This document shows positions 13,261 to 56,661 of a DNA stretch of 64,000 bases, in pieces (the stretch's first letter is position 1; the number at the start of each line of letters is the position of its first letter). The position numbers and the translations under genes are program-made. The notes beneath the pieces were generated by a model. That model was not told the origin of the DNA. It saw only the letters and a program-made list of their open reading frames with translations, and did no database searches. The DNA comes from Alphaproteobacteria bacterium (lineage in GTDB: Bacteria; Pseudomonadota; Alphaproteobacteria; RF32; CAG-239): NCBI GenBank assembly GCA_044432975.1, contig JAWXUC010000004.1, positions 30,291 to 94,290 on the forward strand, in the 5' to 3' direction.

Positions 13261-14493
13261 ATGAATAAAAAAAATATTCCTTTCACCAAAGAGCAGGTGG
13301 CATCTTTGGCGACTACTCCGTTTTATGTATATGATAAAAAAGCAATGCTTGATAATGCAAGCAAATTTATTAATGCTTTTTCTTGGGCAAAAGGTTTTAA
13401 GAATTTTTTTGCGGTAAAAGCTTTGCCCAATCCTAGTATTATAAAAGCTTTAAATGGAATCGGTATGGGATGTGATTGTTCTTCTTTAACAGAGTTGATG
13501 ATGGCAGAAAAATTGGGTTTGAGTGGCAATAATATCATGTTTACTTCAAATAATACTCCAGTTGAAGAATTTGTTAAAGCAAAAGAATTAAGCGCTATTA
13601 TCAACTTTGATGACATTACTCATATTAAATTTTATGAAGAAAATATAGGTGAGTTGCCAGAGACTGTTTGTTTTAGATACAACCCAGGGGCATTAAAAGA
13701 AGGTAATGATATTATTGGAAACCCTCGTGAGGCAAAATATGGTTTGACTTTAGAACAAATGTTTGAGGCTTATGAATATGTAAAAAGCAAAGGCGTTAAA
13801 CGTTTGGGGTTGCACACAATGGTGGCTTCTAACGAGACTAATGCAGATTATTTTGTAGAAACTGCAAAAATTATTTTTGAACTTGCTTTGCGTTTGAAAA
13901 AAGAAAAAAATATTCAAATAGATTTTATTAATCTTGGTGGTGGTTTGGGTATTCCGTATTTTCCTTATGAAAAGCCTTTAGATATTCAAGAGATTTCAGA
14001 TAAAATTAAAGCTGAATATAATGCTTTATTAAAAGAAAATGGTTTAGAGCCAGAGCTTTATTTTGAATGCGGAAGATATGTTACAGGTCCTTATGGATAT
14101 TTGGTTACAAAAGCAATTCACAAAAAAGAAACTTATAAAAATTATATTGGTGTAGATGCTTGTATGGTTAATTTGATGCGTCCTGCTTTGTATGGGGCTT
14201 ATCATCATATTTCTGTTATGGGTAAAGAAAATGAAGAGCATAATTATACTTATGATGTGGTTGGTGCATTGTGCGAGAATAATGATAAATTTGCCATAGA
14301 TAGAGCTTTGCCTAAAATTGAAAATGGTGATTTTTTGGTAATTTCAGATGCTGGAGCTCATGGTTCTGCAATGGGTTTTAATTATAACGGCAAACTTAAA
14401 TGCGCAGAATATTTCTTAAACCAAGATGGAAGCTTTGAAATGATTAGAAGAGCAGAAACTCCAGACGATTATTTTGCAACGTTGAATTTTTAG
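13261..14493 (+). CDS. lysA: Diaminopimelate decarboxylase-family PLP enzyme (Orn/DAP/Arg decarboxylase fold)
   Basis: TPFYVYD...FFAVKALPN (PLP lysine)...GCDCSSLTE...GGGLGIPY motifs. Confidence 0.75.
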   Translation: MNKKNIPFTKEQVASLATTPFYVYDKKAMLDNASKFINAFSWAKGFKNFFAVKALPNPSIIKALNGIGMGCDCSSLTELMMAEKLGLSGNNIMFTSNNTPVEEFVKAKELSAIINFDDITHIKFYEENIGELPETVCFRYNPGALKEGNDIIGNPREAKYGLTLEQMFEAYEYVKSKGVKRLGLHTMVASNETNADYFVETAKIIFELALRLKKEKNIQIDFINLGGGLGIPYFPYEKPLDIQEISDKIKAEYNALLKENGLEPELYFECGRYVTGPYGYLVTKAIHKKETYKNYIGVDACMVNLMRPALYGAYHHISVMGKENEEHNYTYDVVGALCENNDKFAIDRALPKIENGDFLVISDAGAHGSAMGFNYNGKLKCAEYFLNQDGSFEMIRRAETPDDYFATLNF

Positions 14494-14859: not shown

Positions 14860-14866
14860 TGTTTTT

Positions 14867-15038
14867 AGTCGGGATGGCTCGGCGGAAATTATTGTGTATG
14901 GTGTCTGAAAAACACTTACATGGAACTTCACTGTTAAAGGTGGAGTGTTCGGATAGGGCTATATGCTTAAGAAGAACGGCTGCCATGTACAGTTTTTCAG
15001 CTCCACCACTGATTTTTATAATTCAGTGGTTTTGTTTT
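14867..15038 (+). ncRNA. Unclassified structured RNA / leader, copy 1 of 3
   Basis: Paralogue of 28792-28957(-) and 56151-56322(-). Helices P0, P1, P1b, P2 and P3 are kept by compensatory changes. Carries the invariant CAGTTTTTCAGCTCCACCACT and ends in CCACTGA..TCAGTGG + TTTTGTTTT. Confidence 0.75.
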
Positions 15039-15063
15039 AACTATAACAAAATGGAGTGAAAAA

Positions 15064-15298: not shown

Positions 15299-15336
15299 AT
15301 ATTCTAGATTTCTAGAATTCTAGAAATCTAGAATAT
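15299..15336. repeat. Perfect 38-bp palindrome rich in CTAG
   Basis: ATATTCTAGATTTCTAGAA|TTCTAGAAATCTAGAATAT; a further half-site GAAATCTAGAATATA lies at 15341-15355. Confidence 0.9.
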
Positions 15337-15460: not shown

Positions 15461-15532
15461 GTAGGGAACAGTCTTGACTGTTCCTTGTATAATATGGCTA
15501 ATTTCAAAGGAATGGTCAAGACCATTCCCTAC
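15461..15532. repeat. REPIN (two inverted GTAGGG-head REPs)
   Basis: GTAGGGAACAGTCTTGACTGTTCC (15461-15484) and GGAATGGTCAAGACCATTCCCTAC (15509-15532). Confidence 0.8.
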
Positions 15533-15664
15533 AAATTATTATAAAACACAATCATTTATTTTTGCCTTAGCTATAGTAGAAATACTTTTTTATTTTTAAT
15601 AAAATTTTTTGTTGCCTAATCTGATTTTTGTTGTATTTTAGTACTAATTTATAAGGAGCTTTTT

Positions 15665-28498: not shown

Positions 28499-28538
28499 AA
28501 TTACGCATTACGTAGAACGTTCTACGTAATGCGTAATT
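28499..28538. repeat. Perfect 40-bp palindrome
   Basis: AATTACGCATTACGTAGAAC|GTTCTACGTAATGCGTAATT, 6 nt downstream of the Xre ORF stop. Confidence 0.9.
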
Positions 28539-28544
28539 TTTTAA

Positions 28545-28772
28545 TTAAATCTCTTTAGATTTAAGGATAATAGATATATCTTGATTATAATACTTTGCTA
28601 AGATTTTAATCATTCTAATATCTAAAACACCTTTGCCAAGTTCTGTTTTTTCTAATAAATCTTTATTGATTTTTACTTCTTTTGCAACAGTTGCTAATCT
28701 TTTAGATTTTTCTTGCCTGAGTTTGAAAATTTGCAAGCCAAATTCTTTTTTTATGTTTTTTATTTTCGTCAT
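28545..28772 (-). CDS. Small Xre/Cro-type helix-turn-helix protein (75 aa)
   Basis: Paralogue of 15064-15282 (KEFGLQIFKLRQE..LEKTELG..ILAKYY); the same GGAGTGAAAAAATG start context. Confidence 0.75.
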   Translation of the reverse strand: MTKIKNIKKEFGLQIFKLRQEKSKRLATVAKEVKINKDLLEKTELGKGVLDIRMIKILAKYYNQDISIILKSKEI

Positions 28773-28791
28773 TTTTTCACTCCAATTTGTT

Positions 28792-28957
28792 AAAACAAAA
28801 CCACCTGATTTATATCAAGTGGTGGAGCTGAAAAACTGCCAAGACAGCTATCCTTATTTGGCATAGCCTTATTCGGACGCTCCACCTAGTGGTGAGCGTT
28901 TCTTGGTAGTGTTTTTCAAGCACCATACATAATAATATCAGCCAAGCAATCTTGACT
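28792..28957 (-). ncRNA. Unclassified structured RNA / leader, copy 2 of 3
   Basis: Same block order and helices as copy 1. Terminator CCACTTGAT..ATCAGGTGG + TTTTGTTTT on the minus strand. Confidence 0.75.
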
Positions 28958-28964
28958 GATATTT

Positions 28965-28993
28965 AATATATAAGAATCTTTTTTATTTGTAAA
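28965..28993 (-). promoter_or_regulatory. Sigma-70-type promoter of structured RNA copy 2
   Basis: Minus strand TTTACA (28993-28988), 17-nt spacer, TATATT (28970-28965). Starts 5 nt after the rph stop. Confidence 0.55.
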
Positions 28994-28998
28994 TGTTT

Positions 28999-29715
28999 TT
29001 ATAAATTTAATGCTTCTTTTTGTTTTTCAATTAATTGCATTATGCCGTTTTTAGCTAGTTCGTATAAAATATCGTATTCTTTTTTGCTAAAGGTTTTGCC
29101 TTCGGCGGTGCCTTGGACTTCTACTAAGCCTTCTGATTGCGTCATTACAAAGTTTATGTCTACATCTGCATGACAATCTTCGGCATAATCAACATCAACC
29201 ACACAAGCTTGGTTTGAAATTGCGCAAGAAATTGCTGCTACAAATTCTTTTATTGGGTTTTCTTTTAATTGACCTTCTGCGATTAATTTTTGCACTGCCA
29301 AATAAAGAGCAACAAAACCACCTGTTATAGATGCGGTGCGTGTTCCGCCATCGGCTTGGATTACGTCGCAGTCTATTGTGGCGCTAAAGCCATTGAATTT
29401 TTCTAAATCAACAACGGCACGCAAAGAGCGTCCGATTAATCTTTGAATTTCTTGAGAGCGACCAGAAATACCCTTAACATCTCTTTTAACTCTAGTAGTG
29501 CAAGAGCGAGGGAGCATTGAATATTCTGCAGTTACCCAACCTTTGTTTTGACCTTTTAGCCAAGATGGAACTTTATCTTCAATGCTTGCGGTACATATAA
29601 CGTGAGTGTTGCCAAACTTGATTAAGCAAGAACCTTCCGCATATGCATTAAAGTTAGGGATAATGGATATATCCCTAACTTCATTGTTTTGTCTTTTTGA
29701 CGGACGGTTGGTCAT
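28999..29715 (-). CDS. rph: Ribonuclease PH
   Basis: RPSKRQNNEVR..., GGTRTASITG motif. Confidence 0.95.
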   Translation of the reverse strand: MTNRPSKRQNNEVRDISIIPNFNAYAEGSCLIKFGNTHVICTASIEDKVPSWLKGQNKGWVTAEYSMLPRSCTTRVKRDVKGISGRSQEIQRLIGRSLRAVVDLEKFNGFSATIDCDVIQADGGTRTASITGGFVALYLAVQKLIAEGQLKENPIKEFVAAISCAISNQACVVDVDYAEDCHADVDINFVMTQSEGLVEVQGTAEGKTFSKKEYDILYELAKNGIMQLIEKQKEALNL

Positions 29716-34849: not shown

Positions 34850-35049
34850 CTTGTTGTTGGATAGGTTGATTACCTATCTGAGGTGTCGAAACCTCTTTAA
34901 GCACGTCTTGAAAGACGTTAAATTTTACATACTTTCTAGTCTATGACTGGAAGGTGGTAAAATAAAGCCCTTGCGGTTGAATATACCGCACTATTTTGCT
35001 TAAATAGTTTCGAACTTCCAGTCGCCCCTCATCATGGCGATATTTTTTT
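34850..35049 (+). ncRNA. Candidate structured RNA or 5' leader upstream of the OMP gene
   Basis: Hairpins at 34860-34878, 34880-34895 and 34903-34918. A 9-bp long-range stem GACTGGAAG/CTTCCAGTC (34945-34953 / 35015-35023) encloses two hairpins. GC hairpin TCGCC..GGCGA + T-run ends at 35049, 25 nt before the ATG. Confidence 0.4.
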
Positions 35050-35073
35050 AATTAAAAAAAGGAAACTTAAACT

Positions 35074-35619
35074 ATGAAAAAAACTTTATTACTTGCAGGC
35101 GTTGCTTGCGTTTTATCTTTTAACTCTAATGCTTCTGAAATCAAACCTTATGTTGGTTTAGATGTCGGAGTGGTTAGTGCAGATTTAGCTAATGGCTATG
35201 ATTTAATTGCAGAAGATAGTTTATATACATATTCAGTTAATGCAGGTGCAAAAATTAATGATAATTTTGGTTTAGAGGCTTTTTATCAAACTTCTTCTGA
35301 AGAAGATAAAACAATTGGCGCACTGACAACAACCACAAGTTTTGATGCTTATGGCCTAGACGTTATTGGATATTTACCAATAACAGAAAAAACAAATTTA
35401 TTAGGTTCTGTTGGTTTAGCTCAATATGACTTTGAGTTAAAAGCAACAGGGCTTGCAACAGAAAGCGAAGATGGCTTAGGTTGTCGTTTTGCTGTTGGTG
35501 CTGATTATAACTTAACAGATAATGTTTCTTTTAGAGCAATGGCTCGTTATGTTACTTTAGATACTGATAATGTTGATAGTCTAACAGAATTTTCTGTTGG
35601 TGCTAGATATTCTTTCTAG
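35074..35619 (+). CDS. Small outer-membrane beta-barrel protein (OmpA-like barrel/porin family)
   Basis: Signal peptide, alternating beta-strand pattern, C-terminal ...GARYSF. Confidence 0.8.
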   Translation: MKKTLLLAGVACVLSFNSNASEIKPYVGLDVGVVSADLANGYDLIAEDSLYTYSVNAGAKINDNFGLEAFYQTSSEEDKTIGALTTTTSFDAYGLDVIGYLPITEKTNLLGSVGLAQYDFELKATGLATESEDGLGCRFAVGADYNLTDNVSFRAMARYVTLDTDNVDSLTEFSVGARYSF

Positions 35620-55817: not shown

Positions 55818-55835
55818 AAATAAAGAATGTTTTTA

Positions 55836-55857
55836 GGGGCGGCAGCCTCGTCCCTAC
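55836..55857 (-). repeat. REP element (inverted orientation) just after ruvB
   Basis: GGGGCGG-CAGCC-TCGTCCCTAC. Confidence 0.6.
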
Positions 55858-55866
55858 AATTATTTG

Positions 55867-56127
55867 TTATTTTTTGTTAATGATGTTATAAAATTTGTTT
55901 AAGCAATTATAAATATCTTTTGCGGTTAAATATATGGTGTATCCTATTATGTTTAGAGATAATTTGTCGTCTTTTGTTTCTGTTAAAGGTTCTTTAAAAA
56001 ATTCTTCAAGCTCTATTATTGCCTTTTGCTTTCTTTGGGATGTTGTTAATAGTTCTTTTTTTTCATCATTATAAGAGTGATATAGATAAATTAAGTTTTC
56101 CATTAATCTTTTTTCTTCTTTGCTCAT
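55867..56127 (-). CDS. Small hypothetical protein (86 aa) downstream of RNA copy 3
   Basis: ORF starts 24 nt after the RNA terminator T-run. Not similar to the Xre proteins of copies 1 and 2. Confidence 0.5.
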   Translation of the reverse strand: MSKEEKRLMENLIYLYHSYNDEKKELLTTSQRKQKAIIELEEFFKEPLTETKDDKLSLNIIGYTIYLTAKDIYNCLNKFYNIINKK

Positions 56128-56150
56128 TTTTCAATTCCTTTTTTTATAGT

Positions 56151-56322
56151 AAAAAAAATCACCACCACTAAAAAAGTGGTGGAGCTGAAAAACTGCCGCA
56201 TGTCAGCCACTCTAATTCGAGCATAGCCTTATATCGAGCACTCCACCGAAGTGGGTGACTCATACGGATAAAACGTTTTTCAGGCGTTATACATAATAAT
56301 ATTAGCCAAGCCTATCTTGACT
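56151..56322 (-). ncRNA. Unclassified structured RNA / leader, copy 3 of 3
   Basis: Same blocks and helices as copies 1 and 2. P2 is capped by a TTCG loop. Terminator CCACCACT-TTTTT-AGTGGTGG then TGATTTTTTTT on the minus strand. Confidence 0.75.
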
Positions 56323-56330
56323 ATGCTTTT

Positions 56331-56358
56331 ACTATATAGCTCATTTCTGTTTTGTAAA
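56331..56358 (-). promoter_or_regulatory. Sigma-70-type promoter of structured RNA copy 3
   Basis: Minus strand TTTACA (56358-56353), 16-nt spacer, TATAGT (56336-56331). Confidence 0.5.
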
Positions 56359-56456
56359 GAGATATTTATAAGTTTAATTTTGTTAATATTTGAAAATGTT
56401 TGTTTTTTGTGTCAATATAATTCTTATTTATCAATTATTTATTGCTAAAAATACTC

Positions 56457-56481: not shown

Positions 56482-56661
56482 TGTGAGGTTCGTATTTTTA
56501 CGGACTGTTTGTTAAAAACAATGAATTGCAATTAAAATTTTGTTTTTGTAGAGCGGGGGCTTGCTCCCGCCGTTGCGCAGTGCCTCACGGCGGGAGCAAG
56601 CCCCCGCCCTACAGTAAATAGCCCAAAAAAGCACTTATTTTTTTCTTATACGAATCTCGCG
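56482..56661. mobile_element. Inverted-repeat element (TGTGAGGTTCGTAT ... ATACGAATCTCGCG) carrying a nested REPIN
   Basis: The ends are complementary and related to the 316-379 element. The interior contains REPIN 56548-56612. Confidence 0.55.
56548..56612. repeat. REPIN (two inverted GTAG-head REPs, 25-nt arms)
   Basis: GTAGAGCGGGGGCTTGCTCCCGCCG - 15 nt - CGGCGGGAGCAAGCCCCCGCCCTAC. Confidence 0.85.

Follow-up and report, generated by a model that had tools for sequence, protein, structure and literature searches.

What is the conserved unit where one structured RNA is found three times in a short piece of genome, twice before a small regulator gene and once before an unrelated open reading frame (ORF)? 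The question is raised by a stretch of 64,000 nucleotides (nt) from an Alphaproteobacteria bacterium of the CAG-239 lineage (assembly GCA_044432975.1, contig JAWXUC010000004.1, positions 30,291 to 94,290), which is called the window below and is numbered from its first letter. In an earlier note on this DNA the third copy of the RNA (copy 3) was described within positions 55,867 to 56,358, followed by an ORF of 86 amino acids (aa) without resemblance to the Xre-type helix-turn-helix (HTH) proteins encoded after copies 1 and 2. The RNA by itself, usable with different genes or acting as a free-standing small RNA (sRNA), was therefore taken there as the conserved unit. The comparison with relatives reported here leads, with moderate confidence, to another answer, in which copy 3 is the complete leader of a multi-copy RNA family and the RNA would act as a two-fold transcription attenuator.

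A structured RNA family of gut Alphaproteobacteria

Copy 3 is an element of about 170 nt on the minus strand, extending from promoter to terminator between about 56323 and about 56152. Read from 56358 down to 55867, the layout comprises a promoter-like site, about 170 nt of GC-richer sequence, the terminator, a hairpin formed by a U run and an A run (the U:A hairpin), the motif AGGA and the ATG of the ORF; single parts are collected in Table 1. The predicted fold has a z-score of -3.5 and holds the 5' hairpin P1, the helices S1 and S2, the terminator and the U:A hairpin. The extent given in the earlier note, with all blocks and helices kept, was recovered, as were the UUCG-capped hairpin (CCAC-UUCG-GUGG) and the internal G-U pair of S2 (CCGUAUG:CAUGCGG). 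When positions 56100-56400 were compared with the window by blastn, two more copies appeared, at 28750-29011 on the same strand and at 14866-15063 on the opposite strand, and a covariance model built from the relatives described below (R1) has exactly three matches in the 64 kilobases (kb), with copy 2 scoring highest and copy 1 lowest. The three copies can be aligned over their full length, through the terminator and the U:A hairpin to the start codon. Promoter-like sites are not enriched in the AT-rich region of copy 3 (4 found, 3.9 expected), so the case for the site in front of the RNA is its position relative to it; a TACAAT-like box stands at an equal distance from the RNA in relatives. 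Terminator-like sites in the same region number 6 where 0.9 are expected.

Relatives were gathered with an invariant 18-mer, CAGTTTTTCAGCTCCACC, over one genome per species, followed by a profile search and the covariance model. About 55 true relatives were obtained, all of them in metagenome-assembled genomes (MAGs) from gut samples that are labelled as uncultured Alphaproteobacteria, proteobacterium, Azospirillum/Azospirillaceae or CAG:495. Paralogues are numerous, at least 4-6 contigs with a copy being found per MAG (for example BRZ_KI__bin16, E04__bin53 and A1_L3 bin.16), and three copies stand in the 64-kb window. In an alignment of 40 sequences the helices of the hand-derived structure are 93.6% paired, compared with 32-44% after sliding the partners. 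Both sides change in 23 of the 40 pairs, and none of 500 shuffles attained any of the observed measures. The change on both sides affects all 8 pairs of S2 (helices 3 and 4) and 9 of the 12 pairs of helices 6 and 7 (the arm S4/S5 and the hairpin S6), and the long-range helix S1 (CUGAAAAAC:GUUUUUCAG) is invariant inside the family. The consensus also includes a hairpin H3 (UCCAC / GUGGA), an internal loop in the arm (GAUAUAAG / CGAAUAA) and a tail CUCCACC that is followed by the terminator. As the MAG copies score 118-150 bits and the window copies 71-75 bits, the latter are the most divergent members seen.

Searched with Rfam 15 at the gathering scores, the whole window yields tRNA only and no match for the RNA family. 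Judged from these comparisons, the element is a genuine structured RNA family which has its own promoter-like site and terminator and is absent from Rfam 15. Its covariation is as strong as that of accepted structured RNAs, and it is abundant in a poorly studied group, the uncultured gut Alphaproteobacteria. Matches of the 18-mer outside Alphaproteobacteria (Desulfobacteraceae, Oscillospiraceae, Jeotgalibacillus and others) were rejected as chance or unrelated sequences, none of which fits the covariance model. A pattern specific to the window-type insertion had no match among representative species genomes, and a metagenome scan with a 21-mer gave two matches only, both due to chance and located in GC-rich contigs. 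Viral contigs scanned with the 18-mer contained three chance matches, two at 11.7 bits and a third without a model match, and a phage origin of the family is thus not supported. An integron attC site or another structure of single-stranded DNA is an unlikely explanation, given that a promoter-like site and a terminator are predicted, that the covariation tolerates G-U pairs and that no integrase was seen in the ORF lists that were read. In one MAG (L108) two members stand in tandem on the plus strand, at 1128-1256 and 1744-1869, with 39 and 99 bits respectively.

The gene behind the RNA

The catalogue of genes downstream of the homologues, which had been suggested in the earlier note, was made by comparing a profile of the family Xre proteins with all six reading frames over 700 nt downstream of each RNA; the count covers the 54 members for which about 170 nt or more of downstream sequence exist. 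An Xre HTH gene on the same strand follows the RNA in 51 of the 54, the exceptions being copy 3 and two MAG loci, L086 and L015. In L015 (1669-1999, minus strand) the RNA is intact at 147 bits and the Xre gene has been deleted to its first five codons, MLNKK; by its sequence this locus indicates that the RNA can outlive the loss of its cargo. In L086 (5812-6196, plus strand), the closest relative of the window copies, the RNA is followed by a non-HTH ORF of 58 aa with a strong ribosome-binding site. The Xre proteins proved too divergent for their alignment to serve as a search query, and a single Xre protein used in its place found no close relative.

Since the Xre gene is present in 51 of 54 members, the conserved unit is the tandem of RNA and Xre gene and replacement of the cargo is rare, so what had been concluded from one copy about the RNA alone cannot be generalized. 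The similarity of copy 3 to the other two extends to the start codon, a pattern that suits a duplicated cassette whose coding part was exchanged better than it suits an RNA travelling alone. The notion of a leader employed with different cargo has to be divided: inside the family it is not borne out in the form proposed, with three exceptions of which L015 is a plain deletion, and at greater depth it gains ground from the genes for an outer-membrane-protein-like (OMP-like) product and for SymE that stand behind similar RNAs (see below).

The 86-aa reading frame after copy 3

The ORF after copy 3 is indeed unlike Xre. A Pfam search assigned it to no family, while the two other cassette proteins match HTH_3, HTH_19 and HTH_31, and the family Xre profile had no match in the six frames downstream of copy 3. 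A frameshifted Xre gene was considered and ruled out, since none of the six frames carries an HTH signal. A search of 5.8 billion clustered proteins returned the ORF itself and no homologue, in all fetched loci no relative was detected by tblastn or blastn, and no similarity exists to the 58-aa ORF of L086. A single-sequence AlphaFold (AF2) model, with a mean predicted local distance difference test (pLDDT) of 71 and a predicted template modelling score (pTM) of 0.58, displays the order helix-helix-three strands-helix, which differs from the all-helical Xre fold, and a fold search of the PDB with this model gave no match at E < 0.4.

At 33% G+C an open frame of 86 codons has a chance probability of 0.0012. 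The codon score of the ORF is 0.36, compared with 0.39 and 0.46 for the two Xre genes and -1.14 (standard deviation 0.36) for off-frame reading. Four other contigs with this ORF (L119-L122, from Logan) are 100% identical to the window and hence uninformative on selection; their upstream ends lie about 490 nt from the ORF in three of them and about 50 nt from it in L122, and the Logan assemblies probably break near the repeated RNA. Judged from its frame and codon usage, the ORF is a probable orphan gene which looks coding.

A less favourable view, already raised in the earlier note, is that of a decaying pseudocopy, i.e. a duplicated RNA-Xre cassette in which the gene has degenerated to a chance ORF and the RNA is drifting to loss. 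Apart from the missing homologues, two changes in copy 3 would suit it. The Shine-Dalgarno context is altered, as had been noticed, from (A/U)UGGAGUGAAAAAAUG in copies 1 and 2 (also written UGGAGUG) to AAGGAAUUGAAAAAUG in copy 3 (also written AGGAAUUG), and the 5' GGUG has become AACG. A true deletion remnant is moreover known in the family (L015). Nevertheless copy 3 fits the covariance model as well as copies 1 and 2, its score lying between theirs, and its changes are compensatory: in the AACG...CGUU hairpin both sides differ from the other copies with the pairing retained, S2 remains paired, and the U:A hairpin reads UUUUUUU:AAAAAAA in copy 3, compared with UUUUGUU:AACAAAA and UUUGUU:AACAAA in copies 1 and 2. 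Its promoter-like site and terminator are intact, no Xre remnant was found in any frame, and an open frame of that length with gene-like codon usage speaks against a chance ORF. Decay is consequently held to be very improbable. The 5' AACG is no longer able to pair with CACC of the 3' tail, by which a possible GGUG:CACC extension of S1 is lost, and given this change copy 3 might behave somewhat differently from the other copies. It appears that the coding part of copy 3 was replaced by the orphan ORF, or diverged past recognition, with the leader, the terminator, the U:A hairpin and the start-codon context retained. Copy 3 would then be a rare cargo swap under a retained leader, accompanied by an orphan small protein that may be real.

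A proposed two-fold attenuator

According to the proposed mechanism each leader would be transcribed from its own promoter and would end at its own intrinsic terminator, directly before the small gene. In fold A the helices S1 and S2 would clamp the 5' half of the RNA onto its 3' half and an element E would hold an element F by pairing. Element J (CUCCACC) would stay free, the terminator that overlaps it would form, and a stable short RNA would be released. In fold B element F would pair with J and the 3' strand of S2 would be turned into the loop of an alternative hairpin (hairpin 2), leaving the terminator short of 2-5 of its approximately 8 pairs, so that polymerase would read into the downstream gene. 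Candidate triggers are a ligand, another copy of the RNA and a protein, for instance the Xre product.

This model draws on four divergent groups: the family of the window, the Brt RNAs of Bartonella, a fourth element of the window and the relative of the latter in locus L139. Element F is complementary to J in all four and also to E in three, the E:F pairing of L139 looking imperfect by eye. The sequence of F is CCGGGAG in Brt and GACUGGAAG in the fourth element, and F:J of L139 is GGGUGGAUG:CAUCCGCCC; E and J are near-copies of each other. S1 differs in the other groups and is complementary there too (UCGAAAC:GUUUCGA in the OMP-type RNA, UUAAAAG:CUUUUAA in Brt). The stem of hairpin 2, which is the counterpart of hairpin number two in the sRNA-Xcc1 model, is ACUG..CAGU in the window family, CUGA..UCAG in Brt, GCCGU:ACGGU in L139 and ACUAUU:AAUAGU in the fourth element. 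Apart from E:F of L139, the order of helices P1, S1, S2, E:F, F:J, S5 and hairpin 2 is common to the four groups, whose sequences differ. In every copy J shares bases with the 5' arm of the terminator, 5 nt in copy 3 and 2-3 nt in the others. Riboswitch-type leaders likewise combine a covarying multi-helix fold with an intrinsic terminator, part of whose bases can also enter an alternative pairing, for which J with F is the candidate here. In contrast to riboswitches, the cargo of the window family is a transcription factor and not a metabolic gene, many paralogues are present per genome, and the terminated product may itself be an abundant RNA.

Several observations weigh against the two-fold attenuator. 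Within the family S1, F, J and hairpin 2 are invariant and can thus show no covariation; S2 and the arm, which covariation backs directly, both belong to fold A, and fold B draws its support only from the comparison of divergent groups whose homology is itself deduced. As far as this homology is concerned, single hits across the families reach only 8-17 bits (E 0.02-3), and the covariance model of the Brt RNAs (R2) leaves the three window copies in noise. The overlap of J with the terminator is only 2-3 nt in many MAG copies, so F:J may be a weak antiterminator. Finally, a gap of 110-180 nt separates the RNA from the start of the Xre gene in many MAG loci. A separate promoter would fit into it, and the RNA could then be an independent sRNA gene.

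In the last case a trans-acting RNA of about 170 nt would always terminate and would base-pair with other mRNAs or with sister copies, its link with Xre being a matter of co-inheritance or of Xre control of the sRNA promoter. Besides the gap, such a stand-alone gene agrees with the promoter-like site and the strong predicted terminator that the RNA possesses, with the survival of the RNA where Xre was deleted (L015) or replaced (copy 3, L086), and with the trans action proposed in the literature for Brt1 and sRNA-Xcc1. It is less easily reconciled with the position and strand relative to the downstream gene, which are kept in 51 of 54 members, or with the pairing of U run and A run before the ribosome-binding site in all window copies, which matters only in read-through transcripts. 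In Bartonella, moreover, the Xre-HTH genes behind the Brt RNAs (trp) have no discernible promoter of their own, and deletion of the 3' stem-loop of Brt1 raises the transcription of trp1 (review PMC8070961). A stand-alone sRNA is thus regarded as possible but rather unlikely, although the role of an sRNA and that of an attenuator are not mutually exclusive. In MAG loci such as L069, L014 and L044 the spacer before the Xre gene holds a further conserved hairpin, e.g. GCUG-GUGG-CAGC, which may act as another regulatory element or belong to a separate promoter region.

Comparison with the Brt RNAs of Bartonella

B. henselae has nine Brt RNAs of 194-203 nt, each immediately preceding an Xre-HTH gene (trp). 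These RNAs are abundant and trp is poorly transcribed; copy numbers range from 2 to 34 between species of the genus Bartonella, to which the RNAs were reported to be confined (Tu et al. 2016, PMC5387305). A response of Brt1 to heme is claimed in a review on the basis of the group's reporter data (PMC8070961). For the mechanism of the Brt RNAs a riboswitch, an RNA thermometer, a heme sensor and a trans-acting sRNA are all under discussion.

For the comparison, pBGR3 and 16 Bartonella loci were used, in which 32 of the 35 profile matches are distinct full-length Brt copies. The structure deduced for Brt reaches 90% pairing, compared with 26-55% for slid partners, and at 15 pairs both partners have changed. 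It consists of P1, a closing helix GGGA-UUAAAAG : CUUUUAA-C-UCCC, a covarying S2, an extra hairpin and H3 (UCCCGG-AAUU-CCGGGA), followed on the 3' side by an arm UUUUGC:GCAAAA with internal loop and hairpin, the pairing CUGA...UCAG and the tail CUCCCGG. Like the window family, Brt is a multi-copy structured RNA of about 170-200 nt which lies upstream of, and co-oriented with, a small Xre-HTH gene in an alphaproteobacterial host. It also has a 3' stem-loop, which in Brt attenuates transcription according to the literature. The order of helices appears to be shared too, namely P1, a long-range A-rich:U-rich clamp, a variable helix, a hairpin whose 3' strand (..GGAG) also complements the CUCC.. 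tail, the arm with its internal loop and the CUGA/CAGU hairpin. On the other hand, Brt differs from the window family in having the extra hairpin and the tail CUCCCGG, and instead of a classic terminator it carries a GC hairpin that lacks a U run. Trp proteins have 108-152 aa whereas the Xre proteins of the window family have 72-86 aa, and Brt occurs in Bartonella while the window family occurs in uncultured gut Alphaproteobacteria. A co-oriented Xre-HTH gene, as in Brt/Trp loci, lies downstream in 51 of the 54 members, also behind copies 1 and 2, and is absent behind copy 3.

Plain sequence similarity does not connect the two. In nhmmer searches the window-family profile returned no Bartonella sequence and the Brt query returned Bartonella only, there is no BLAST similarity, and the window family does not belong to the Brt family as defined by BLAST similarity. 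The covariance models reach further. When R1 was run with filters off over 55 kb of Bartonella DNA, 15 of 33 hits, including the top 8, fell on Brt copies, on the right strand, over the full length and in helix-for-helix register, with Brt making up 5% of the search space; the enrichment corresponds to a binomial P of about 2e-11, the Brt copies being paralogues and the hits therefore not independent. The pBGR3 copy received 4.8 bits only. Conversely, R2 run over 68 kb of MAG loci hit 7 of 7 MAG-type copies and had its best score, 16.7 bits (E 0.017), on an R1 copy. From this register and helix order the window family and Brt are likely to be distant homologues; at the least the window family is an architectural twin of Brt. 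If they are related, the features kept at this distance are the S1 clamp, an F complementary to both E and J, the CUGA/CAGU hairpin and a CUCC tail beside the terminator, and Bartonella, with its genetic tools, is a host in which the two-fold model is open to tests by mutation.

A fourth element, sRNA-Xcc1 and other known systems

The best R2 hit in the window, 19.7 bits at 34881-35020, lies off all three copies and marks a fourth, divergent element in front of an OMP-like gene. Its fold has a z-score of -8.2, and the sRNA-Xcc1 model scores 32.3 bits on it. The element comprises P1, S1 (UCGAAAC:GUUUCGA), S2 (UUUAAGC:GCUUAAA), an extra hairpin, E CUUUCUAGUC, F GACUGGAAGG and J CUUCCAGUC; the terminator overlaps J, and a U:A hairpin precedes the ribosome-binding site. 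Among the species genomes the OMP-like gene has a sole relative, in L139, with 41% identity, and it is preceded by the same type of RNA (sRNA-Xcc1 30.6 bits, Brt model 13.9 bits). Between L139 and the fourth element the sequences of S1, S2, F:J, S5 and hairpin 2 have all changed, with pairing retained in each. By these alignments, the leader architecture is used with different cargo over long evolutionary distances, not within the RNA-Xre family.

The whole model of sRNA-Xcc1 (RF02221) aligns to the half of the RNA that extends from F to J, with 22.4 bits for copy 3 and 32.5 bits for L086. The gathering score of 53 bits is reached by none of copy 3, L086, the fourth element and L139, and copy 1 has no match; the sub-threshold matches over the F-to-J domain include three independent ones. 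In sRNA-Xcc1 and in this half alike, a closing helix is found together with two hairpins, the first of which has AUA.AA / GAAUAA internal loops, and with a U-rich junction and a tail. The differences are that sRNA-Xcc1, of about 88 nt, is without the 5' half (P1, S1, S2, E), resides in integron cassettes of Gammaproteobacteria and is described as trans-acting. According to published accounts it lies upstream of symE, a small gene, in integron cassettes of Xanthomonas and is, like the window family, multi-copy in some genomes, Xylella having seven copies, of which five are spaced by about 380 nt. The ORF lists around the window copies, which were read by eye, show neither symE nor an integrase, and no setting of an integron cassette, transposon or plasmid. 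So far held to be a trans-acting virulence sRNA, sRNA-Xcc1 may be the 3' half of a leader-type regulator.

The proximity to symE introduces another explanation, a toxin-antitoxin-like addiction module in which the RNA restrains a small harmful protein, as SymR does SymE, and the copies are selfish. The modules of the window are small, multi-copy and inserted between housekeeping genes, the RNA found upstream of the toxin gene symE resembles their 3' half, and Xre proteins often act as antitoxins. However, no toxin gene lies beside any module, the usual cargo being an HTH protein of 72-86 aa alone. Neither terminal repeats nor a transposase were noticed on reading the sequences and the ORF lists around the window copies, in which no systematic search was made, and the 18-mer scan of viral contigs did not bring up the RNA. 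The Pfam YdaS_toxin match concerns only the Bartonella Trp protein and is far under the cut-off. Of the explanations considered, the addiction module is the least credible and must be called extremely unlikely.

In phage P1 c4 and IsrK (RF01695, clan CL00128) a small structured RNA is encoded in the leader of the operon which it controls. The C4 model gives 21.8 bits on L139 only, where the gathering score is 45, and no match at E up to 10 on copies 1 and 3 and the fourth element; in contrast to C4/IsrK, the window family has no phage context. It may be tentatively supposed, as a possibility which is for now doubtful, that Brt, sRNA-Xcc1, the Xre leaders and the OMP leader form one ancient and widespread superfamily of two-state attenuators. 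It would have been coupled repeatedly to different small cargo genes (regulators, toxins, envelope proteins), the terminated form would double as an abundant sRNA, and in copy 3 a cargo swap would have been caught. Such a superfamily could be a new riboswitch class which senses a common signal. Well supported as an RNA family, the element is best filed as a variant of the Brt-type leader/Xre module with an sRNA-Xcc1-like 3' domain.

Positions of the features and their surroundings

Table 1. Features of the three RNA copies, their downstream genes and the fourth element (window positions; motifs written as RNA unless they concern promoter or start codon)
Feature	Position	Strand	Remarks
Copy 1 RNA with terminator	14866..15038	+	71.2 bits
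Copy 1 Xre-type HTH gene, 72 aa	15064..15282	+	HTH_3, 33.1 bits
Copy 2 Xre-type HTH gene, 75 aa	28545..28772	-	HTH_31 and HTH_19, both under cut-offs; family profile E 4e-14
Copy 2 RNA with terminator	28792..28958	-	75.1 bits
Fourth, divergent element	34860..35070	+	upstream of OMP-like 181-aa gene, 35074-35619
86-aa orphan ORF (probable gene)	55867..56127	-	AGGA 8 nt 5' of ATG
Copy 3 RNA	56152..56323	-	covariance model R1: 73.5 bits, E 2.5e-17
Promoter-like site of copy 3	56331..56358	-	TTTACA-16 nt-TATAGT; 10/12 consensus positions; predicted start about 56323
P1, 5' hairpin	56304..56322	-	AGUCAAG / CUUGGCU; 6/7 pairs covary in relatives
Local hairpin around S1 5' strand	56272..56288	-	AACG...CGUU; other copies GGUG...CAYC/CACU
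S1, 5' strand	56275..56283	-	CUGAAAAAC; partner 56185-56193 (GUUUUUCAG)
S2, 5' strand	56261..56267	-	CCGUAUG; partner 56196-56202 (CAUGCGG); one internal U-G pair
H3 hairpin (E:F)	56243..56254	-	CCAC-UUCG-GUGG
Element F	56241..56247	-	GGUGGAG; complementary to E (upstream) and J (downstream)
Arm S4/S5 with internal loop and S6 hairpin	56209..56239	-	loop GAUAUAAG / CGAAUUA in copy 3
Alternative hairpin 2	56192..56207	-	GCUG[...]CAGU; S2 3' strand is its loop
Element J, 3' tail	56178..56184	-	CUCCACC; complements F; shares 5 nt with terminator 5' arm
Intrinsic terminator (predicted)	56152..56182	-	CCACCACU-UUUUU-AGUGGUGG, then U run; 8 pairs
Post-terminator hairpin	56139..56158	-	U run pairs with A run just 5' of ribosome-binding site

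The insertion sites of the three copies lie between housekeeping genes, whose names were assigned by eye from the translations: a 410-aa ORF (13261-14493) and leuS, rph and a lipoprotein-like ORF, and ruvB and plsY. The RNA of L086 sits just past a 685-aa ORF that was read by eye as a sigma-70 (rpoD) gene. Long perfect palindromes stand right after both Xre genes of the window, at 15299-15336 and 28503-28542 (ATATTCTAGATTTCTAGAATTCTAGAAATCTAGAATAT and AATTACGCATTACGTAGAACGTTCTACGTAATGCGTAATT), where they might serve as terminators or as Xre operator sites. Beside the RNA modules there are also GC-rich palindromes, resembling repetitive extragenic palindromic (REP) elements with GTAG...CTAC ends, at 56547-56614, 55830-55860 and 15469-15537, in a genome of 33% G+C.

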